This document shows positions 3,622 through 14,314 of a DNA stretch of 32,000 nt, in pieces. Source of the DNA: Candidatus Methylomirabilis oxygeniifera (lineage in GTDB: Bacteria > Methylomirabilota > Methylomirabilia > Methylomirabilales > Methylomirabilaceae); the NCBI GenBank assembly GCA_000091165.1, contig FP565575.1:2100001-2132000 (forward strand), given 5' to 3'. The notes below the pieces were generated by a model. It did no database searches. It was not told the origin of the DNA and saw only the letters and a program-made list of their open reading frames with translations. Positions within the stretch are counted from its first letter, which is position 1; the number at the start of each line of letters is the position of its first letter. A program made the translations under genes and the position numbers.

Positions 3622-3659
3622 ACTGCGGTATCCCGCGTGACCGGAAGGGCCCAAATAAA

Positions 3660-3706: not shown

Positions 3707-3743
3707 AACAGGTTTCAGACAGTTGTCATTTCTAGCTTGACCC

Positions 3744-3786
3744 GGAATCCAGTGCCTTTCTGGATTCCCGCTTTCGCGAGGACGAC
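3744..3786 (+). repeat. Double-hairpin dispersed repeat, copy A
   Basis: Sequence is ggaatccag-N7-ctggattcc-cgctttcgcg-aggacgac. A second copy with the same architecture lies at 19827-19872. The spurious ORF 3737-4066 reads ...FWIPAFARTT across it. Confidence 0.6.
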
Positions 3787-3802: not shown

Positions 3803-4567
3803 TTACGCCGCTTTTTTCTTGCGTCTCACATACAGCACGGCGCCGATTCCCACGCCGGCAACCGTCATCACCAAAATTGCCGGATTGCTCATCATGGACG
3901 GACCGCGCGCGCCCCCCCCCCTGGGTGTCTTCAATCCGACGGTAAAGGGGAAGCTGAAGGTCGAATCGTGTGCATGATACGCCTCCTCTTCCGCTGTACT
4001 GGTATGCTGCTCGGCGCCGTCGTGACTGTGACTGACCGCCTCCGGTGCGTCGCCTCCGGCACGTGATCTCGCTCCCTGCTCCTCAACCTCCAGTACCGCC
4101 CTATACTTCCCGGCTTTTCCGAAATCCGTCTCAGCCCGCACGACACCTGAAGGATAGACCTGTTGAGGGATATACAGAACCGTTTGGGCGTCTTCACGCT
4201 CGGTGGCCTCGACGACGCGGACCGCCACAGGGGTCTTTCGCAGGGCATCGCTGATAAGATCAAACGTCAGCGTCGCCTTTCCTGTTCTTGGAATATCCCG
4301 ACAGTAGGATTGAAACTCTTCCTTCATCGCATCCACGTACCGCCTCAGGTCCGCATCCTTAAGCTCTTTGAGCTGAGCCAGCTGTGAGGCCCGGTCCGCC
4401 GTCCCATGCTGATAGGCGCTGAAGTGAATGAGATACTGCCCTTTCTCCCTCGAACAGAGATCGTTCTCCGTGATCCCACCCATGCCGCCGCCACCGTGAG
4501 CCCATGCCTGCGACGCTCCCATCACAGCCATCAGCGCTACAACTCCAATCGAAACACACTGCTTCAT
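3803..4567 (-). CDS. Secreted, C-terminally membrane-anchored His-rich protein; putative PmoD/AmoD-like periplasmic copper protein (paralogue 1)
   Basis: 254 aa. The signal peptide ends ...GASQAWA and is followed by HGGGG. It carries C38-x7-L-x-H48, EFQSYC, a His/acidic linker (SHSHDGAEQH..YHAHD), SFPFTVGL, one C-terminal TM helix and RRKKK. It lies 300 nt downstream of pmoB on the same strand and has a paralogue at 25467-26243. Confidence 0.85.
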   Translation of the reverse strand: MKQCVSIGVVALMAVMGASQAWAHGGGGMGGITENDLCSREKGQYLIHFSAYQHGTADRASQLAQLKELKDADLRRYVDAMKEEFQSYCRDIPRTGKATLTFDLISDALRKTPVAVRVVEATEREDAQTVLYIPQQVYPSGVVRAETDFGKAGKYRAVLEVEEQGARSRAGGDAPEAVSHSHDGAEQHTSTAEEEAYHAHDSTFSFPFTVGLKTPRGGGARGPSMMSNPAILVMTVAGVGIGAVLYVRRKKKAA

Positions 4568-4800
4568 GGCCTAACCTACTTCCATCGCGACCATCCCCTG
4601 TTGGTCTTTCTCGTACGCTCCCGAAGCACCGCCGTAGTGCATACAACAGATCCCTGCACGCATTGCGTTCACTGAATCGGTCGAGGGAGGTATGTCAACG
4701 AGATTCCGTTCATGGCTCGACAAAGTCCTGACAGGGACGGATGATAAAGGGGATTGTGAGGCACTACACTAACCGTGAGGAATGTTGAATGCGGTGGTGA

Positions 4801-4854
4801 GGGTCCCCCACCCCTTGAATTCTCCGTTATGTGAAGCTCAAGGGGTGGGGACCC
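4801..4854 (-). terminator. Strong GC-rich stem-loop 13 nt after the micro-ORF stop; leaky terminator or 3' mRNA stabiliser of the pmo transcript
   Basis: gggtcccccaccccttga (4801-4818) pairs with tcaaggggtggggaccc (4838-4854), giving a 17-bp stem with one bulged C. No U-tract follows on the minus strand. Confidence 0.45.
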
Positions 4855-4866
4855 TTCCACCTCCAC

Positions 4867-4950
4867 CTATGCCTGGTTCACCAGTGTCATCAGAACAAAT
4901 ATCAGCATGATAAGTAGCGCTAAGTTCATCCCTTGTGCGGCGAATTCCAT
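4867..4950 (-). CDS. 27-aa single-TM micro-protein immediately downstream of pmoB (candidate pMMO-associated peptide)
   Basis: It sits below the 60-aa cutoff of the track, as the C-terminal part of ORF 4867-5130. The ATG at 4950 is preceded by GGAGGGAG with 6-nt spacing and lies 19 nt after the pmoB stop. The peptide is MEFAAQGMNLALLIMLIFVLMTLVNQA. A stem-loop follows. Confidence 0.55.
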   Translation of the reverse strand: MEFAAQGMNLALLIMLIFVLMTLVNQA

Positions 4951-4969
4951 GATCGTCTCCCTCCTTCCG

Positions 4970-6238
4970 CTATTTGTACTGGGTAGTCGGCCGCCATTTG
5001 CCTCCGCCGGACAGGGCCGTTGCGCCACCCTCGAAGGACGGAATGACCGGGCCGCCGACCTCAACAATTTGTCTGTTCTTATCCGCATCAAAGAACTCAA
5101 AGAGTCCGCCGTACCGGCTGTCTGAGTCATAGATCAACTCAGCCAACCGCTGATATTCCCATTCCGCATCGGTCGCATCTATCGACATCGTTACGGTCTG
5201 GCCTGGAGGGATGGGACCGGCCGGCTCCACCTTGATTTTGAGTCGCGAGTCAGGGAAGAGGGCCGGATCCCGAAACTGCAGGTTGGCCGTGATGAATCCT
5301 CCCAATTGCTGAGGCCTGTTTGAACCGTTTGTGACCTCTATCACCATCCCAAGAGAACGTCCAGGTACGGTATAGACCGCTGTGACAGGCCTGGCCTTCA
5401 CCGTGGCATGGGAATACGGCGTAAACTCTGTCGTGGGCTTCAGTTCGGGAGTATCCATCCGACCGGTCTGCAGCGGGATGGTGATTGGGTAGGCGCCGTT
5501 CGTCGTGACGTAGCCGATAGCGACGATGAGGACCGTGGCGATCATCAGTACGAGTCCAAGCGTCCGATCGCCGGGGCTAACAAGCTCCTCCTCAGGTACC
5601 ACTCCCACCTGGAAGAGACGTCGCGTAAATGGCCGTCGTACCCACCACAGCAACCAGAACACACCGACAAAAGTCCAGAGGAGCCACCAGCCGATGATCC
5701 GACCTTGCCCATGGACCTCCATATTCACTGTCGTACCATCAATGGTGGTAACGTTATTGGTGAAGTTACTCCAGTCGCCATCGACGGTGACGAACTCGCC
5801 TCCACCGACCAGGGGCCCTCCACCCTCGATATTCACCATCGGGTGAACGTGATAGGTCCCGGTGACCCGGCCCATAATATTCATTCTATAATCATAGTCT
5901 CCGCCAAGTTGAGTACTGGTGGCGTTGATGACCGGCATGCCATTCATCCATGCCTCTTTCTTGAGCATTGATGGCCCAGGCACGGAGTAATGGAGAAAGA
6001 TCGATTCGGGGGTGTTTACGGCCCTCGGCCATTCACTAAATGTATGGAACTTTCCCGTCAGATCCATGGTCTCGCCAGGCTGTACCCGAGCTTTTGACCA
6101 TTTCGTATCGTAGAACGTTATTGTACGCATCCGAAGAAACGGCTCTTGCGATCGCTCGCCATGCGCCCATGCCGTTCCAGCGGATACGGCGATCACTCCA
6201 AGCAAGATCGCCGACAACGCCGCTCGTCCTATCCTCAT
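4970..6238 (-). CDS. pmoB: Particulate methane monooxygenase subunit B (PmoB)
   Basis: The start was moved to ATG 6238 (GGGAGGAT SD 5 nt upstream) within ORF 4970-6295. The signal peptide ends ...SAGTAWA, then HGERSQEPFLRMRT. It has the YHVHPM His motif, two TM helices (WWLLWTFVGVFWLLWW and LGLVLMIATVLIVAIGYV) and a C-terminal cupredoxin-like domain. Confidence 0.95.
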   Translation of the reverse strand: MRIGRAALSAILLGVIAVSAGTAWAHGERSQEPFLRMRTITFYDTKWSKARVQPGETMDLTGKFHTFSEWPRAVNTPESIFLHYSVPGPSMLKKEAWMNGMPVINATSTQLGGDYDYRMNIMGRVTGTYHVHPMVNIEGGGPLVGGGEFVTVDGDWSNFTNNVTTIDGTTVNMEVHGQGRIIGWWLLWTFVGVFWLLWWVRRPFTRRLFQVGVVPEEELVSPGDRTLGLVLMIATVLIVAIGYVTTNGAYPITIPLQTGRMDTPELKPTTEFTPYSHATVKARPVTAVYTVPGRSLGMVIEVTNGSNRPQQLGGFITANLQFRDPALFPDSRLKIKVEPAGPIPPGQTVTMSIDATDAEWEYQRLAELIYDSDSRYGGLFEFFDADKNRQIVEVGGPVIPSFEGGATALSGGGKWRPTTQYK

Positions 6239-6348
6239 CGTTATCCTCCCAGGTTCGTGGGTAAGCGTCAACACATTCGCATCATAGCGCCACATGGGGT
6301 TGCCTTATAGCCTTCCATCGAGAACCCCACGGCCCACATCGATGACAA

Positions 6349-7080
6349 CTACGTCCGCGAGATCCATGCCGGCCTTGAGATTACCTTCCCCATCCACACC
6401 CACCAGAGGTAGATAATTCCACTAATAAATCCGGCGAAGAACGAGGAAACCGGCGTAACGTCGCGCCCGAATGTTCGCAGCGTCCCCCGCTCCACGATTC
6501 GGATATACTCCGGCGTGGCGGAGCGCACATACTCCATCCCCATCAGATCAGCGATGGACATGAGCGGCCCGCTGGGATGCTTCACGGCCAAATGAAATGG
6601 CGCCAGCCAGGTCCAGTTCGCCGGATAGAACAACAGGGACCACCCCATGCCACCGAACAGTGCCGTAAACATGTAGCTTCCCGTCATCATCAGCATCACG
6701 TCCAGGAAGATCGCACTGGGGATCATCAGACCCGGGGCGGTAAAATTGACCGGAAACCAGGCCCAATAGTAAAAGTTAAAGACACGATTCATCCATTGTC
6801 CGAAGTGAAGCGTCATCACGCAAAAGGTCGCACCGATCGGCAGACGCATCTTCTCCCACATGAAATATTGCGTCGCCGCAGGGAAGGTAATCAACAGGAT
6901 CGGCGTCAACGTGACCCACCAGCGCCGATCCTTCCAGTCCAGCCAGAAGTCCCAGTCGCCAACGGTCAGCATCTGGTGGATGTGGTACCCCGCAACTGTA
7001 CCTGTGAACGCAGCCACTATGACAATAATATCAAACTTGCGCTCCAGGCTTAGAGCTTGCTGTTGTGTCAAAAGCGCCAT
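6349..7080 (-). CDS. pmoA: Particulate methane monooxygenase subunit A (PmoA)
   Basis: The start was moved to ATG 7080 (GAGGAGGGG SD) within ORF 6349-7143. The product is a 243-aa polytopic membrane protein with the characteristic ...MLTVGDWDFWLDWKDRRWWVT... motif. Confidence 0.95.
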   Translation of the reverse strand: MALLTQQQALSLERKFDIIVIVAAFTGTVAGYHIHQMLTVGDWDFWLDWKDRRWWVTLTPILLITFPAATQYFMWEKMRLPIGATFCVMTLHFGQWMNRVFNFYYWAWFPVNFTAPGLMIPSAIFLDVMLMMTGSYMFTALFGGMGWSLLFYPANWTWLAPFHLAVKHPSGPLMSIADLMGMEYVRSATPEYIRIVERGTLRTFGRDVTPVSSFFAGFISGIIYLWWVWMGKVISRPAWISRT

Positions 7081-7186
7081 AAGCTCTTCCCCTCCTCGAA
7101 GGGAGGGGGGGGGAGCAACCACCCCCCCTCCACATTTGGTCATGTAGACTTTGGGGACCTCAAAAAACGATCCTCAACGAGTATCG

Positions 7187-7963
7187 TTACGCGGTCGCCT
7201 TACCACCGCTGGTGATCCTGATCAACTCAAAGATCCGCGGACACATCGCCGCCGCCACGCCATACACCCCAAACAGACACCAACCCAGCGTGACAAAGCC
7301 CCAATGCAGCGGCGCCACAAACAGCTCTTCCATGATCCAGAAGGTGTGACCCCACTCGTTCAGCGCGACATTGACAAAGATCATCGCAGGGCCGCCGACC
7401 GTGAGCATGAACGGGATCGAGTGGGCCTTCGAAAATAGGGGGAGTCGGGTCCGGGCCCACATGTAGGCGCTAATCCCGATGATGATGTAGATCGGGTAGC
7501 TGAGATAGAACTCAATGATGTGGCTCGGCGTAAAGTCCGTATCGCGGATCACCGTCTGGTGCCACGTCCCGTCCTGCTCGGTAAAGAAGCTGGCGCCCCA
7601 ATACACCGCCCAGGCGAACGTCGCGATCCACTGCCCGAGACCCCAGAACCGCCTGAGCTCCTCCTCCGGCGTAATTTTATCGAGGTTCCGGTCGCGAGTC
7701 TTCCAGATGTACCCCAGGGCGAAGGTCAGCACCGCCCCCTCGATAATCAACTCCCCGATCAACATGTTCCACCAGTAGATCCGGAAGTCCTCGGAGAAGA
7801 AGTCGAGGCCTTTCGACCAGGAGAAGTACTGCTGGTAAATCCGAATCATAACGTAGAAGATGCTAATAGCTATCTGACATTTAAAGAAGGTGCCCCAGCC
7901 AAACATCTGCTCGACTGACTCGGCGCGCTTAGCCGGCGCAGCTTCCGTCCTGTACTGTGCCAT
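7187..7963 (-). CDS. pmoC: Particulate methane monooxygenase subunit C (PmoC)
   Basis: 258 aa, with AAGGAGGAAGG SD before ATG 7963. Conserved PmoC motifs RDTDFTPSH and NEWGHTFWIMEELFVAPLH are present. Gene order C-A-B is canonical. Confidence 0.95.
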   Translation of the reverse strand: MAQYRTEAAPAKRAESVEQMFGWGTFFKCQIAISIFYVMIRIYQQYFSWSKGLDFFSEDFRIYWWNMLIGELIIEGAVLTFALGYIWKTRDRNLDKITPEEELRRFWGLGQWIATFAWAVYWGASFFTEQDGTWHQTVIRDTDFTPSHIIEFYLSYPIYIIIGISAYMWARTRLPLFSKAHSIPFMLTVGGPAMIFVNVALNEWGHTFWIMEELFVAPLHWGFVTLGWCLFGVYGVAAAMCPRIFELIRITSGGKATA

Positions 7964-8155
7964 TTGATCCTTCCTCCTTACGCTCTGAACATGTTACATA
8001 ACGTAGACGGCACTACTCTAAGACCGCACTTCCCCTTACTTTCTCTTGACGCCGATTCTCACCTCCTTTGTCGCCACTGACGTAACAGGTTGAGGTTTAC
8101 GGTCGTTGTTGCTCAACAAAATCGCTCTTTGGAAACCTTGTTCTAAGAAGATGTT

Positions 8156-8185
8156 AGCATATGTCGCGATTGAAACACCTGTCAA
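8156..8185 (-). promoter_or_regulatory. Sigma-70-like promoter in the pmoC upstream region
   Basis: Minus strand reads TTGACA (8185-8180), 18-nt spacer, TATGCT (8161-8156). It lies about 190 nt upstream of the pmoC ATG. Confidence 0.4.
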
Positions 8186-8276
8186 GTCCTTTTTGCCTTC
8201 CGAACCCTGTTCCAACCTTGATCACATTGACACCTGCATCCGAGCAATACTGAAGACAACACTAAGACTTTAATAC

Positions 8277-8291
8277 GCAAGGATGGTGCCA
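8277..8291 (-). promoter_or_regulatory. Sigma-54 (-24/-12) promoter upstream of pmoCAB
   Basis: Minus strand reads TGGCAC-catcc-TTGC, an exact match to the TGGCAC-N5-TTGC consensus. It lies about 315 nt upstream of the pmoC ATG and 131-154 bp downstream of a repeated palindrome. A sigma-54 activator gene is adjacent. Confidence 0.6.
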
Positions 8292-8421
8292 AACGTAGTG
8301 GCAATCGGTATTGAGCCTACTTTCACCAGTGAAATCAAGAGGTTCAAATAGTGACTTCAAAGAAACGCCATGGGTCGCAACAGAATTTCTAGTTAATTTT
8401 CATTAGAACGCCCCACCCTGC

Positions 8422-8445
8422 GACAGCTGTCCCACCACAGCTGTC
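8422..8445. promoter_or_regulatory. Tandem ACAGCTGTC palindromes; candidate enhancer (UAS) for the sigma-54 promoter, or a terminator-like hairpin of the regulator gene
   Basis: gACAGCTGTC (8422-8431) and ACAGCTGTC (8437-8445) are 14 bp apart, start to start. Together they can also fold as an 8-bp stem (gacagctg/cagctgtc). They lie directly after the regulator stop codon. Confidence 0.35.
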
Positions 8446-10116
8446 TCAGACTGAGTCAATCTGCGTCTGTCGTTTCAGACCAAACTGCTCCAGTTTGCGA
8501 TACAGCGTACTGCGGGAGATGCCGAGCTGGGCCGCGGCCTGCGACAAATTCCCCGCACATTGCTGGACGATCTGACAGATGAGCTGCCGTTCGGTCTGCG
8601 CGAGCCAGCCGCCGGGCTCCGGCCGCTCGGAGGCCTCCCCGCGCAGGGTGCGAATCGCCTCGGGAAAGTCGTCCCAGCGGATCTCGGGCCGCGGCAGGAG
8701 CACGCCCACCTGCTGCAGGACATTGCGCAGCTCCCGGACATTGCCGGGCCACGGATACGGGGTGAGCGCGAGCGCGCGCAGCGCCTCCTCCGTAAAGCGC
8801 AGGTCCGGGCAGTGCAAGGCGGCGGCGACATCGGCCAGGAAGGAGGCCGCCAGCAGGGGGATATCCTCCCGCCGCTCCCGCAAGGGCGGCAGGTGGATCG
8901 AAATGACATTGAGCCGGTAGTACAGGTCCTCCCGAAACAGCCCCTTGGCCACCTCTTTGAGCAGGTCTTTATTGGTCGCGGCGATGATGCGGACATCGAG
9001 GGGGACCGGCTGGCCGCTCCCTAGTCGGGTGAGCTCCTGCTGCTCCAGCACCCGCAGGAGCGCCACCTGGGTGCTGGGCGAGCACTCGCTGACCTCATCG
9101 AGGAAGAGGGTGCCGCCCTGGGCCTCTTCGAACCGGCCCGACCGGCCGCCTTTGCGCGCGCCGGTAAAGGTGCCGTCTTCATAGCCGAACAGCTCAGACT
9201 CGATCAGCTCCCGGGGGATGGCACCGCAGTTGACCGCGATGAACGGCTTGGGGGCGCGGGGGGAGCTGGCGTGGATCGCATGCGCGAGCATCTCTTTCCC
9301 GGTCCCCGATTCCCCGGTGATGAGGACGGAGAGGGTGTTGCCGGCGGCGATGAGGCCGATCTTGGTCGCGTTGCGGAAGGCGGCGGACTGCCCCACCAGA
9401 TCGGCAAAGGTGTACTTGGCCCCCACCACGATCGCCTTGGGCTTGCGGGGGACGGGCGGCTCCAGTCGGGCGGTCGGAAAGAGCACGGCGGCGGCGACCA
9501 CCTGCGAGCCGTGCCGGAGCGCCAGGCCCCAGGCCGTAAGGAGCCGGCCGCTACGCCCGCAGTAGACCTTGACCTCCTGGGGGCTGGAGGGGGCACGGGT
9601 CAGCAGGGTGCGGCCGACCTCGGCCAGCTCCGGGATCGCCGCGACGGAGGGCCGGGCGGGGTCGAGCTGCAGCAGGTGCGCGGCGGCCCGATTGCACAGC
9701 AGCACCTGCCCCTGCGGATCCAGCACCAGCAGGCCGTCGCTGAGCAACTCCGCGGCGGCGGTGAGCGGCCCCAGCAGCGCCTCGGCAGCGCGCGCCGGCG
9801 GGACGTCGGGCAACGGCGGGGCGAGGAGCGAGCCGGCTAAGAGCTCGATCACCAGATCGCTTTGGACGTGGGTGCGGCAGAGCAGGACGTGGCCCTGGGC
9901 CTGCTCGCTGGCGGAGAGCACGTGATCCGGCGGCGCGACCAGGTGGGCCTGGCCGCTGCGGAGGCGGGCCTTACAGCCCCCGCACTCGCCGTCCGCGCAG
10001 CGGTAATCGACCAGGCGCAGGCCCTGGCGCAGGGCGACCTGCAGGACCGACTCGGTGTCGTCACACTCGATGGTGATGCCCAGCGGTTCAAACCGGACCT
10101 TGCGCATCCGCGTCAT
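8446..10116 (-). CDS. Sigma-54-dependent transcriptional activator with N-terminal 2Fe-2S ferredoxin-like domain and PAS-like sensor region
   Basis: The N-terminus has C-ADGE-C-GG-C ... LLC (a plant-type Cx4Cx2C..C pattern). A PAS-like LLVLDPQGQVLLCNRAAAHLL follows. The AAA+ domain has Walker A GESGTGKE, GTFTGA (a GAFTGA variant) and GGTLFLDEV. The C-terminal Fis-type HTH is LSQAAAQLGISRSTLYRKL. ATG 10116 has AGGAG 9 nt upstream; an alternative GTG at 10182 overlaps the helicase stop (GTGA). Confidence 0.9.
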   Translation of the reverse strand: MTRMRKVRFEPLGITIECDDTESVLQVALRQGLRLVDYRCADGECGGCKARLRSGQAHLVAPPDHVLSASEQAQGHVLLCRTHVQSDLVIELLAGSLLAPPLPDVPPARAAEALLGPLTAAAELLSDGLLVLDPQGQVLLCNRAAAHLLQLDPARPSVAAIPELAEVGRTLLTRAPSSPQEVKVYCGRSGRLLTAWGLALRHGSQVVAAAVLFPTARLEPPVPRKPKAIVVGAKYTFADLVGQSAAFRNATKIGLIAAGNTLSVLITGESGTGKEMLAHAIHASSPRAPKPFIAVNCGAIPRELIESELFGYEDGTFTGARKGGRSGRFEEAQGGTLFLDEVSECSPSTQVALLRVLEQQELTRLGSGQPVPLDVRIIAATNKDLLKEVAKGLFREDLYYRLNVISIHLPPLRERREDIPLLAASFLADVAAALHCPDLRFTEEALRALALTPYPWPGNVRELRNVLQQVGVLLPRPEIRWDDFPEAIRTLRGEASERPEPGGWLAQTERQLICQIVQQCAGNLSQAAAQLGISRSTLYRKLEQFGLKRQTQIDSV

Positions 10117-10178
10117 CCTCGTGGACTCCTGGGGGGTCCCCTGCCGTCCGGCGGGCACGCCGGACGGCATCGGGGGGC

Positions 10179-11402
10179 TCACGCCCCCTCGGTTTCCGCC
10201 GACTTTCGACCCTGGCGCACGCTATTCGCGGCCACCGCGGCACCGGCAGCTACCCCTGGGGCAAACGCCGATTCGTCCGGCCACTGCACAGGAATCTTAA
10301 ACCCGATGTACCGCTCGATCGCATCAAGCGACAGCACATATTCCTCGTCAGCCAGACTGATCGCCTTACCGGCTGCCCCGGCCCGCGCCGTTCGTCCGAT
10401 CCGGTGGACGTAATCTTCCGGGTCCTGCGGGAGGTCGTAGTTGATCACGTGACTGACCGCCTCAACATGCAACCCACGCGATGCGACATCGGTCGCCACC
10501 AGGATCGGCAGCGTGCCCGCTTTGAACTTGGTGATAATCTGGAGGCGCTTACGCTGATCGATGCTACCGCTGATCAGGCCCGCCCGGAAGCCGCACCGGA
10601 CCAACTTATCAGTGAGCCGCTCGGCGCCCTGCCGAGTATTCGAAAAGATCAGGATCCGTTGCCACGCCTCGCGCTGAAGCAACCAGCGCAACAGCCGGAA
10701 TTTTTCCTGCTTCTCGACGTGAAAGAGCAGATGTTCAACCTTGTCGACCGTAACCTGTTCCGGGGAAATGGCGACCTTAATCGGATTATTCATAAACTCG
10801 TACGACAGCTCCATCTCTCGAAATGAAAGCGTCGCCGAAAACAGGAATGACTGACGCTTATGGTAGGGGGGGAGCCGCCTCAGCAGGAAGCGAAGGTCCT
10901 TGATGAACCCCATGTCGAACATCCGGTCGGCCTCGTCCACAACCAGGACTTCGACTTGAGAGAGTTCGTAGACCCCCTGCTTGAAGTAATCGATGAGCCG
11001 CCCGGGTGTTCCGATGAGGATATCGACGTTCTGTTGAAGCGCGTCCCGCTGTTTCTGATAGTCCACCCCTCCATAGGCTGCGAGCCGTGTCAGGCCGGTG
11101 AATCCACCCAACAACTCCGCATCCCACAGGATCTGCACGGCCAGCTCACGCGTGGGCGCCAGGATCAGGGCTCGGGGGGCGCCGGAAAGCGTAGGGTGTC
11201 TTGAAGTGAGTAGTCTGACAAAGAGGGGGATCAGGAAAGCGGCTGTCTTACCGCTGCCGGTCTGAGCTTGCCCGGCAATATCTTTCCCCGCCAGGGCGAG
11301 CGGCAGCGTCTCAGCCTGGATCGGTGTACACTGAGTAAAACCGGCCGCCTCTATTCCCCTCGCGATCGACGCGGGAAGTGAAAAGGTGTCGAAGGTCGTC
11401 AT
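10179..11402 (-). CDS. DEAD-box ATP-dependent RNA helicase
   Basis: 407 aa. Motifs seen: Q-motif ...GFTQCTPIQ, AQTGSGKT, PTRELA, DEAD, SAT and HRIGRTARAG. Confidence 0.92.
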   Translation of the reverse strand: MTTFDTFSLPASIARGIEAAGFTQCTPIQAETLPLALAGKDIAGQAQTGSGKTAAFLIPLFVRLLTSRHPTLSGAPRALILAPTRELAVQILWDAELLGGFTGLTRLAAYGGVDYQKQRDALQQNVDILIGTPGRLIDYFKQGVYELSQVEVLVVDEADRMFDMGFIKDLRFLLRRLPPYHKRQSFLFSATLSFREMELSYEFMNNPIKVAISPEQVTVDKVEHLLFHVEKQEKFRLLRWLLQREAWQRILIFSNTRQGAERLTDKLVRCGFRAGLISGSIDQRKRLQIITKFKAGTLPILVATDVASRGLHVEAVSHVINYDLPQDPEDYVHRIGRTARAGAAGKAISLADEEYVLSLDAIERYIGFKIPVQWPDESAFAPGVAAGAAVAANSVRQGRKSAETEGA

Positions 11403-12291: not shown

Positions 12292-13926
12292 TTAATACAT
12301 ATCGCCCATCCCGCCGTGGCCTCCCGGCGGCATCTGCGGCGCCTTCTCCTTTTCCGGAACCTCAGTCACCAGCGCCTCGGTGGTAATCATCAACGACGCG
12401 ATGCTCGACGCGTTCTGCAGCGCAATCCGAGCGACCTTGGTCGGGTCGATGATCCCGGCCACCAGCATATCCTCATACGTCTCCGTCTCGGCGTTGAAGC
12501 CGTATGAACCGTTGTTCTCTCGGACCTTCTGGACGACAATCGAGCCCTCAACTCCTGCATTCTCCGCAATCTGGCGGATCGGCTCCTCCAGCGCGCGACG
12601 AATGATGTCGCCGCCGACCTTCTCGTCGCCTTCAAGCTTCAGCTTTTCGACGACCCTCGACGCTCGAAGGAAAGCCACGCCGCCACCGGGGACGATCCCC
12701 TCTTCGACAGCCGCGCGGGTCGCGTTCAGCGCATCCTCGACCCGGGCCTTCTTCTCCTTCATCGCGATCTCGGTAGCCGCTCCGACCTTGATGACCGCCA
12801 CACCGCCGGCAAGCTTGGCCAGCCGCTCTTGCAGTTTCTCCCTGTCGTAGTCCGAGGTCGACTCCTCGACCTGGGTTCGAATCTGCTTGATACGGCCTTC
12901 GATCTCCTTCTGGGCGCCGGCACCTTCGATGATGGTCGTATTCTCCTTATCGATGACCACTTTCTTCGCCTTGCCCAGATCGTCCAGTCGAATATTCTCC
13001 AGCTTGATCCCCAACTCCTCAGAGATCACCTCACCGCCGGTGAGTACCGCGATGTCCTTCAGCATCTCCTTACGCCGATCGCCAAAGCCCGGCGCCTTGA
13101 CCGCCGCGCAGCTCAGGGTCCCACGCAGCTTGTTGACCACCAGAGTGGCCAGCGCCTCACCCTCAACCTCTTCAGCAATCACCATCAGCGGCTTGCCCAT
13201 CTTAGCGATCTGTTCCAGAATCGGCAGGAGATCCTTGAGGTTACTGATCTTCTTTTCGTGGATCAGGATCAGCGGGTTTTCCAGGACTACCTCCATCCGC
13301 TCAGGGTCGGTCACGAAATATGGCGACGTATAGCCTCGATCAAACTGCATCCCCTCAACCACCTCGAGGGTCGTCTCCATGCTCTTCGCTTCCTCGACGG
13401 TGATGACCCCGTCTTTGCCGACCTTCTCCATGGCATCGGCGATGAGCTCGCCGATCGTCTTATCGTTATTGGCCGAGATCGTGGCAACCTGGGAGATCTC
13501 CTTCTTCCCCTTGGTCGGCTTGGAGATCTTCCTGAGTTCATCCACGATACCCTCAACGGCCTTCTCGATTCCCCGCTTCAACGCCATCGGGTTCGCGCCG
13601 GCCGTGACGTTCCTGATCCCCTCTCGGAAGATAGCCTGGGCCAGCACAGTGGCAGTGGTGGTGCCGTCTCCGGCAACATCGGAGGTCTTGCTCGCAACCT
13701 CCTTCACCATCTGGGCGCCCATATTCTCAAAGTTATCTTCCAGTTCGATCTCCTTGGCTACCGTAACGCCATCCTTCGTAATATTCGGAGCGCCGAACTT
13801 CTTATCGATGACCACGTTACGCCCCTTAGGACCCAGAGTCACCTTCACGGCGGCGGCAAGGACGTCCACACCCTTCTGAATCTTCCGCCTTGCCTCCTCA
13901 TCAAACAGCAACTGCTTCGCTGGCAT
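12292..13926 (-). CDS. groL: Chaperonin GroEL (60 kDa)
   Basis: The start was moved to ATG 13926 (GAGGAGG SD) within ORF 12292-13944. The product reads [15 protein letters not shown]...[13 protein letters not shown]... and has a C-terminal GGM-type tail ([10 protein letters not shown]). Confidence 0.97.
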
Positions 13927-14026
13927 ATCAGCTTTCCTCCTCAACCTGCGTCAGTTCCCCGATCGGAGTCGGGGACAAGGTTTAACTACGAAATGGCGAT
14001 CTCCTCGTCAACGCTCTGCAGCCCTG

Positions 14027-14314
14027 CTATTGCAGGATGCATAGAACGTCTTCCTCCCGCATGATCAGGAATTCCTCATTGTCGACCTTGACCTCCGAAC
14101 CGGAGTACTTGCCAAAGAGGATCTTATCGCCTGCCTTCACATCCATCGGCTGTCGCTTTCCATCATCACCGACCTTGCCCGGCCCGACGGCAATCACTTC
14201 GCCTTCTTGGGGCTTCTCTTTCGCAGTATCGGGGATAATGATCCCGCCCTTCTTGATTTCTTTTTCTTCCAGACGCTTCACCAGGATTCGGTCGTGCAAC
14301 GGCTTTACCCTCAC
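14027..14314 (-). CDS. groS: Co-chaperonin GroES (10 kDa)
   Basis: 95 aa, with GTG start 14314 and AAGGAG 9 nt upstream. The product reads (M)[18 protein letters not shown]...[13 protein letters not shown]. It sits immediately upstream of groEL. Confidence 0.95.

Follow-up and report, generated by a model that had tools for sequence, protein, structure and literature searches.

The pmoCAB locus and its upstream region

Candidatus Methylomirabilis oxygeniifera, a nitrite-dependent methane oxidizer of the phylum Methylomirabilota (NC10), carries the genes for particulate methane monooxygenase (pMMO) in a pmoCAB operon on the minus strand (4970..7963) of the stretch analyzed here. This stretch, called the window below, comprises 32,000 nt of contig FP565575.1 (forward-strand positions 2,100,001-2,132,000). 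Its genes pmoC (7963..7187), pmoA (7143..6349) and pmoB (6295..4970) encode proteins matching the Pfam families AmoC (9e-93), AMO (3e-95) and Monooxygenase_B (9e-121), respectively. PmoC is 93-95% identical to proteins from metagenome-assembled genomes (MAGs) of Methylomirabilota, with 93-94% for the closest relatives from genomes, the next relatives being at 57%. The pmoC gene is preceded by a 482-bp intergenic region, on the other side of which lies a gene for a sigma-54 enhancer-binding protein (EBP), a candidate activator of the operon. As judged from sequence, this region probably contains two tandem pmoCAB promoters, a distal enhancer-dependent one of the sigma-54 type and a proximal one of the sigma-70 type. 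The GC content falls to 0.40-0.49 over positions 8250-8450, whereas the flanking genes have 0.55-0.60 and the gene upstream has 0.70.

All promoter elements are read on the minus strand. The sigma-54 promoter is predicted at 8277..8291 and consists of the -24 element TGGCAC (8291-8286), the spacer catcc and the -12 element TTGC (8280-8277), the GG and GC dinucleotides being 10 bp apart. It has the same orientation as pmoC and is situated 314 nt upstream of the ATG, with no conserved open reading frame (ORF) in between. It is the sole exact match to TGGCAC-N5-TTGC in the window, where 0.01 are expected, and a match was obtained in one of 100 shuffled sequences. With one mismatch allowed, three matches to the -24/-12 consensus were found, against 1.75 expected by chance; therefore, we gave weight only to the exact match and its conservation. 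Transcription is predicted to start near position 8266, which would yield a leader of approximately 303 nt.

Further upstream, the motif ACA-N2-TGT occurs twice (8444..8437 and 8430..8423) within a putative enhancer, or upstream activating sequence (8421..8445, minus strand). The first repeat directly follows the stop codon of the EBP gene (8448..8446), and the pair is located 131-153 bp upstream of the first T of TGGCAC. Copy 2 is ACAGCTGTC (8430-8422) and copy 1 is ACAGCTGTG (8444-8436), reading ACAGCTGTg; the 9-mer exactly common to both is GACAGCTGT (8445-8437 and 8431-8423), 14 bp from start to start. The pattern GACAGNTGT is enriched in the window, with six occurrences against 0.70 expected. 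Between the repeats and the promoter there is a match to the binding site of integration host factor (IHF), AATCAAGAGGTTC (8333..8345, plus strand; also given as AATCAAgaggTTc), which differs from the pattern WATCAANNNNTTR at one position, the final C, and is approximately 66-80 nt upstream of the predicted sigma-54 start.

The sigma-70-like promoter is predicted downstream, at 8156..8185 (minus strand), with the -35 element TTGACA (8185-8180), an 18-nt spacer and the -10 element TATGCT (8161-8156). It agrees with the consensus at 10 of 12 positions and is the only match of the promoter scan between 7000 and 9000. Transcription from it would start near position 8149 and produce a leader of approximately 186 nt.

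An original prediction, made for this same region, had already placed TGGCAC-catcc-TTGC at 8291-8277 and TTGACA-18-TATGCT at 8185-8156, and both elements were borne out: the former is the only exact match in the window and is conserved, and the latter retains its critical bases in 12 of the 13 loci compared below. The leaders of about 190 and about 300 nt claimed there agree with the predicted values of about 186 and about 303 nt. The tandem palindromes proposed by the same prediction were correct in number (two copies), offset (14 bp) and distance (131-153 bp upstream), but not in the sequence given for copy 1, which is ACAGCTGTG rather than ACAGCTGTC.

The pmoC leader contains two further elements on the minus strand, the pmoC ribosome-binding site GTAAGGAGGAAG (approximately 7981..7970) and a Shine-Dalgarno-like element AAAGGAGGTGA (8059..8069), which is full-length, invariant among the related loci and placed some 100 nt before the start codon of pmoC. 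The latter is not followed by a conserved ORF and might act in mRNA stabilization through ribosome binding or as a standby site. A scan of positions 7900-8500 against Rfam gave no match at E-values up to 1. RNAalifold applied to 13 leaders produced a weak consensus (-7.8 kcal/mol) with almost no covariation and no supported RNA structure; therefore, we make no claim of a riboswitch or a structured leader.

Conservation of the predicted promoter elements in Methylomirabilota

The comparison included 13 loci: the window, two loci from genomes (L002 and L003), five from metagenomes (L081-L085) and five found via EBP homologs with identity down to 64% (L161, L162, L164, L165, and L167). Wherever the contigs reach, the genes follow the order DEAD-box helicase, EBP, pmoCAB, with GroEL further upstream. 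The exception to the EBP-pmoCAB order is an additional locus, L166, which is disrupted beside a transposase gene. There (L166:1927-2300) the repeats are present after the EBP stop codon, and about 45 nt further on they are followed by an unrelated 295-aa ORF and a DDE transposase gene, with no promoters or pmoC; the break is either a rearrangement or an assembly join.

The mean column identity of the 13-sequence intergenic alignment is 59%. The best-conserved 15-mer is TTGGCACCATCCTTG (8292..8278, identity 0.979), which corresponds to the sigma-54 element. It is followed by the Shine-Dalgarno-like leader block CAAAGGAGGTGAGAA (8070..8056, 0.959), the pmoC ribosome-binding site TCAGAGCGTAAGGAG (7988..7974, 0.949), the IHF-like block GAACCTCTTGATTTC (8345..8331, 0.913), and the -35 region AAAAGGACTTGACAG (8193..8179, 0.908). 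The next block, 8435..8421, contains the second repeat (0.856). Each of the 12 related loci whose sequence extends far enough upstream has the sigma-54 element; in 12 loci the pattern TTGGCA[CT][CT]ATCCTTGC has 16 of its 18 positions invariant, and so are the GG and GC dinucleotides. Thus, conservation of both the -24/-12 element and the palindromes in relatives, which had been proposed as a check of the original prediction, holds across the Methylomirabilota loci. It is hardly credible that the motifs match by chance, in an intergenic region richer in AT. Relaxed versions of each of them do occur at chance frequency; but the expectation for the exact -24/-12 sequence is 0.01, the 13 loci conserve all elements at a fixed spacing, and the comparative data already contradict such an explanation. 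We consider the observation to be above chance because it is conserved in 12 further loci.

Both repeats keep their ACA and TGT without exception in the 13 loci and are always 14 bp apart, with variation at the central bases, a behavior that supports an enhancer function. Nine loci have 140 bp between the second repeat and the GG of the -24 element; the remaining four have 141, 152, 152, and 161 bp. The two larger steps approximate one and two turns of the helix, which suggests a face-of-helix constraint. The repeats could otherwise form a hairpin at the end of the regulator-gene transcript, copy 1 pairing with copy 2, the true enhancer being elsewhere. The repeats begin one base past the stop codon, and the two copies in L164 and L082 are reverse complements of each other (ACACCTGT and ACAGGTGT), so that the stem would persist. 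However, no U-tract follows the repeats and the terminator scan was negative there. Moreover, pairing between the copies is broken at the center in several loci (for example, ACACGTGT and ACAGATGT in L083) while ACA and TGT remain invariant, which fits base-specific protein contacts and not a stem, and a related inverted repeat, CACCTGT-N11-ACAGGTG, stands upstream of sigma-54-type promoters in two loci outside NC10 (L004 and L007, see below) with no gene end nearby. Hence, we rejected the terminator reading of the repeats, and the hairpin explanation as a whole appears very unlikely.

The region between the putative enhancer and the promoter contains two conserved blocks. The first, an AT-rich block AAATTAACTAGAAAT (8385..8399, minus strand), lies between the enhancer and the IHF-like site and has a mean column identity of 0.81 in the 13 loci. 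The second is the IHF-like block itself, located 49 bp from the GG of the -24 element in 12 of the 13 loci, all indels being upstream of it; its ATCAA is kept in 10 of the 13. The IHF-like site claimed between the repeats and the promoter is thus present, and the support for it comes from the conserved block at a fixed distance rather than from the pattern match.

For the sigma-70-like promoter, CTTGACA at the -35 position is kept in 12 of the 13 loci, and TAnnnT (TATGCT, TAGGAT, TATACT, TACGAT, TAGTGT, or TAGTAT) is found 17-18 bp downstream in 12 of the 13 loci. Retention of the critical bases while the spacer drifts is the pattern of a real -35/-10 pair, to judge from the alignment. The sigma-54 element and the -35 element are separated by a freely varying 88-105 bp; therefore, the two predicted promoters appear to be independent modules.

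A different arrangement would be that the sigma-54 promoter alone is real and that CTTGACA...TAnnnT is a third activator site, another operator, or an element for RNA processing or stabilization. In the window the -35 element overlaps GACAGGTGT (8183..8175), a match to the 9-mer pattern of the enhancer repeats, the match of the sigma-70 scan is not significant alone, and the leader downstream is rich in conserved blocks with no assigned role. On the other hand, the other loci keep CTTGACA only and have lost the G-N-TGT part (GATATT, ACGCTT, AAGGAT), and the TAnnnT that 12 of the 13 loci retain at 17-18 bp is a signature of -35/-10 elements, not of the enhancer motif. We regard the overlap as coincidental because it is unconserved beyond CTTGACA, and rejected the -35 element as a third activator site; the broader arrangement seems rather unlikely.

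The opposite arrangement, in which the sigma-70-like promoter alone drives pmoCAB and the -24/-12 element is an unproductive site for the sigma-54 holoenzyme or a site for an unrelated protein, is in agreement with the experimentally mapped pmoCAB promoters, all of which are of the sigma-70 type (PMC3615186, PMC12403871, PMC8782848). It also agrees with the continuous need of an obligate methanotroph for pMMO, which fits a constitutive promoter. Nevertheless, the -24/-12 element is an exact consensus and the best-conserved block of the region, it is adjoined by the gene of a cognate activator with an intact sigma-54 contact motif, and the enhancer and the bend-site-like block are at canonical distances, the whole architecture having no known purpose besides activation. 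A sole role of the sigma-70-like promoter is accordingly judged improbable.

The candidate activator gene and its putative sensor domains

The strongest argument for the sigma-54 promoter is the activator gene next to it, which the original prediction had overlooked. The EBP gene (8446..10116, minus strand) encodes 556 aa counted from Met23 of a 578-aa ORF (10182..8446); we set its boundaries at 10116..8446 because the homologs begin at this methionine (MTRMRKV). The protein contains, in this order, a plant-type [2Fe-2S] ferredoxin domain, a PAS-like domain, an AAA+ sigma-54 interaction domain, and a Fis-type helix-turn-helix (HTH). The corresponding Pfam matches are Fer2 (5e-11), PAS_8 (1e-4, weak), Sigma54_activat (PF00158, 6e-66), AAA_lid_14, and HTH_8 (7e-13, residues 527-567 of the ORF). 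In an alignment of 23 sequences of this family, the Walker A motif GESGTGKE and the Walker B motif FLDE are invariant. The sigma-54 contact loop is GTFTGA in most members and GAFTGA in P0009 and P0023, its F, T, G, and A being invariant. No rpoN gene is present within the 32-kb window, and the occurrence of sigma-54 in the organism is implied only through the conserved EBP with its intact contact loop.

The ligand motif of the ferredoxin domain, Cys-x4-Cys-x2-Cys-x31-Cys, is formed by C62, C67, C70, and C102 (ORF numbering), three of which are invariant while C70 is present in 22 of the 23 sequences. Its best match among solved structures is the ferredoxin domain of MmoC (1JQ4, E-value 1e-10), with the four cysteines aligned. 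The domain thus has all four cysteines of a plant-type [2Fe-2S] domain, and cluster binding is predicted. The AlphaFold2 model based on the 23-sequence alignment had a mean pLDDT of 44, only the PAS-like region (approximately residues 130-235) being confident, and it was not used.

NCBIfam models of named EBPs (NtrC, NifA, NorR, PrpR, AtoC, DhaR, TyrR, and others) all scored below their cut-offs, and their matches span only the AAA+ and HTH part of the protein; therefore, we did not assign the activator to a named EBP. Among the matches to the complete EBP sequence, Fer2-bearing activators were confined to 23 clusters, after which the scores drop sharply to generic EBPs. The named sources of these clusters are usually Methylomirabilota or NC10; one partial match is labeled Verrucomicrobiae. 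When the 232-residue sensor module was searched against 1.84 billion cluster representatives, the whole module was found in one of them. Other matches covered the Fer2 part only (domains were checked in seven, four of which are reductases of soluble di-iron monooxygenases), and an eighth match with checked domains covered the PAS region only.

The activator gene is also an outlier in composition, with GC 0.70 and GC3 (GC at third codon positions) 0.89, compared to 0.56-0.60 for pmoCAB, the helicase gene, and groEL. A GC offset of the activator gene (0.65-0.67 vs. 0.54-0.62) was also seen in L161-L165, and not in L167. A GC-rich hairpin, CCGTCCGGC-gtgcc-GCCGGACGG (10144-10167, minus strand), is situated after the helicase stop codon (10181..10179) and before the start codon of the activator (10116). 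Approximately 2 kb upstream of the activator gene are groEL (13944..12292) and, just upstream of it, a GroES-sized, groES-like ORF (14314..14027), both on the minus strand; the position of groEL is kept in L163, the sole related locus that reaches that far. This groEL was considered as an analog of MmoG, the GroEL-like partner of MmoR, and the analogy was found unsupported, as the protein scores as a genuine GroEL, with 876 bits where the cut-off is 582, and its gene has the GroES-sized ORF beside it. On the other side of the operon, downstream of pmoB, a 254-aa ORF (3803-4567, minus strand) has no Pfam or NCBIfam match; in L161 the ORF in the equivalent position was called at 242 aa.

Related systems and proposed regulation

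The promoters of pmoCAB that have been mapped in Methylosinus trichosporium OB3b and M. sporium are of the sigma-70/RpoD type (PMC3615186, PMC12403871), and the current paradigm holds that sigma-70 is specific to pMMO and sigma-54 to the soluble enzyme, sMMO (PMC8782848). The original prediction had described proteobacterial pmoCAB promoters as being of the sigma-70 type, which is correct (PMC3615186, PMC12403871, PMC8782848). In the literature searched, which covered few subscription journals, neither a link between sigma-54 and Methylomirabilis or any pmoCAB operon nor an EBP with a ferredoxin domain was found. With the sigma-70 pmoCAB systems of Methylocystis sp. M, OB3b, and M. sporium 5, the NC10 locus shares a -35/-10 promoter and a long leader, the leaders in OB3b being 274-324 nt (-274 and -324; PMC3615186); unlike them, it has a second, enhancer-dependent promoter and an activator gene upstream.

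The combination of a -24/-12 promoter with a dedicated EBP gene nearby resembles the sMMO system of Methylococcus capsulatus and Methylosinus trichosporium, in which MmoR and sigma-54 act on the mmoX promoter (PMC8782848). However, the target here is pMMO, a copper enzyme of the membrane whose described promoters are all of the sigma-70 type, and the sensor of the NC10 activator is composed of Fer2 and PAS-like domains, with no copper-switch context evident. The activator is 42% identical over 322 residues to a Methylococcus protein which, from its name and host, we take to be MmoR; the similarity is confined to residues 242-548 (AAA+ and HTH). A specific relationship of the NC10 activator to MmoR is unsupported, this being a generic AAA+/HTH match that leaves the N-terminal sensor unaligned. 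The first 95 residues of the sensor have their best matches in the ferredoxin domains of oxygenase reductases (MmoC, T4moF, and benzoate dioxygenase reductase); in contrast to these enzymes, the Fer2 domain here is fused to a transcription activator and comes with no FAD or NAD domains.

In the NorR-norVW and NifA-nifH systems, the activator acts on short inverted repeats 80-200 bp upstream, and IHF bends the intervening DNA. The N-terminal sensor of NorR responds to nitric oxide (NO) via non-heme iron, and NifA responds to O2 and redox. The TGT and ACA half-sites found here recall the NifA site TGT-N10-ACA; but ACA-N2-TGT occurring twice at 14 bp (equivalent to TGT-N6-ACA) is neither this site nor GT-N7-AC, the sensor is a complete plant-type ferredoxin domain instead of GAF, and the target is a methane monooxygenase.

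A scan of the 700 nt upstream of pmoC in 152 non-NC10 loci revealed the exact -24/-12 consensus in one uncultured clade of alphaproteobacterial MAGs only. In all six members with enough sequence, TGGCAC-N5-TTGC is situated 140-160 nt upstream of a pmoC-like gene (L006:3855-3869, L007:3849-3863, L023:3845-3859, L027:3843-3857, L101:882-896, and L120:604-618), and repeats of the type CTGT-N10/11-ACAG occur upstream of it. The PmoC proteins of this clade are 70-97% identical to each other and at most 70% identical to those of named Methylocystis and Methylocapsa. No activator gene was found in the 4-kb flanks of these loci.

In Skermanella aerolata KACC 11604 (L004), the sequence AGGCAT-N5-TTGC (3731-3745) is located 267 nt upstream of a copper monooxygenase operon (approximately 3935-7250). 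Further upstream are an EBP gene fragment (7-990) and a Cpn60-like gene split into two ORFs (791-2704); the EBP shares 52-55% identity with sigma-54 regulators from Methylococcus and Methylocella, probable relatives of MmoR. This looks like a regulatory set of the sMMO style placed on a copper enzyme, and the split GroEL-like gene is perhaps MmoG-like. The proximity of groEL and the activator gene in NC10 might conceivably echo the pairing of MmoG with MmoR in sMMO systems.

The heptamer ACAGGTG/CACCTGT was found upstream of pmoC only in the NC10 loci, L004, and L007, among 165 loci scanned over 700 nt each (107 kb). Its sites are at 8444-8423 in the window, 3638-3662 in L004 (the inverted repeat there being also placed at 3634-3658), and 3677-3701 in L007, in each case upstream of the sigma-54-type element; in L004 and L007 the arrangement is CACCTGT-N11-ACAGGTG, about 80-140 bp upstream. 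L004 and the alphaproteobacterial clade are also among the closest non-NC10 relatives of the NC10 PmoC. These observations hint at a shared regulatory module for one lineage of copper monooxygenases, in which ACAGGTG may be the recognition motif of the activator across three lineages.

The distal pmoCAB promoter of Ca. M. oxygeniifera thus includes a consensus -24/-12 element, a putative enhancer at approximately -155 to -180, a bend-site-like block at approximately -66 to -80, and an activator gene in cis. In the scheme we propose, the sigma-54 RNA polymerase would be held as a closed complex on TGGCAC-N5-TTGC. The activator encoded upstream would bind the ACA-N2-TGT repeats about 140 bp away via its Fis-type HTH and assemble into an AAA+ ring, which a bend at the fixed IHF-like block would bring to the polymerase; promoter opening would then be driven by ATP hydrolysis and yield a transcript whose leader is about 303 nt long. 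The [2Fe-2S] ferredoxin and PAS-like domains would gate this opening, their likeliest input being the redox state, or damage or ligation of the cluster by NO or O2, so that pMMO synthesis would be coupled to the oxygen and reductant available inside the cell. Some 100 bp downstream, the proximal TTGACA-17/18-TAnnnT promoter would provide activator-independent transcription with a leader of about 186 nt. The earlier suggestion that sigma-54 conditionally boosts pMMO expression is therefore supported at the sequence level by the conserved elements and the adjacent EBP gene.

Several points weigh against this scheme. The 13 loci form one clade, and their conservation partly reflects shared ancestry, flanking intergenic sequence having diverged to approximately 50-75%. 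The helical phasing argument has only two or three independent indels behind it. ACA-N2-TGT is short for a site of a dimeric HTH protein, and it is uncertain in which register the binding site should be read. The IHF pattern with up to one mismatch occurs nine times in the window against 10.1 expected, that is, at chance level, and the sigma-70-like match is not significant by itself (one against 0.7 expected). Finally, redox, NO or O2 as the sensor input is a conjecture by analogy with other iron-based sensors.

In kind, the system corresponds to the usual set of sigma-54 promoter, enhancer, and activator; its novelty lies in the target, pMMO, and in a sensor architecture with no counterpart among the sequences searched. 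Control of pMMO expression is poorly understood even in model methanotrophs and, to our knowledge, nothing has been described about it in NC10 bacteria. The organism is not yet genetically tractable, but the activator and the promoter could be tested in a heterologous host. NC10 bacteria produce their own oxygen from nitric oxide, and the locus offers a concrete circuit, with a defined promoter, an enhancer, and an activator bearing an iron-sulfur sensor, that could explain how synthesis of an oxygen-consuming enzyme is matched to internal oxygen and reductant. As read here, this circuit also contradicts the textbook division between sigma-70 for pMMO and sigma-54 for sMMO. Two further lineages have sigma-54-type promoters in front of copper monooxygenase operons, which suggests that it is not a one-off. 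A more far-reaching possibility, which we put forward tentatively, is that the Fer2-bearing EBP is a master switch coupling pMMO synthesis to internal redox, NO or O2 in intra-aerobic methanotrophs, and that sigma-54 with an ACAGGTG-recognizing activator is a shared, possibly ancestral module of the NC10, Skermanella, and uncultured alphaproteobacterial copper monooxygenase lineage. If true, this would overturn the rule of sigma-70 for pMMO and sigma-54 for sMMO.

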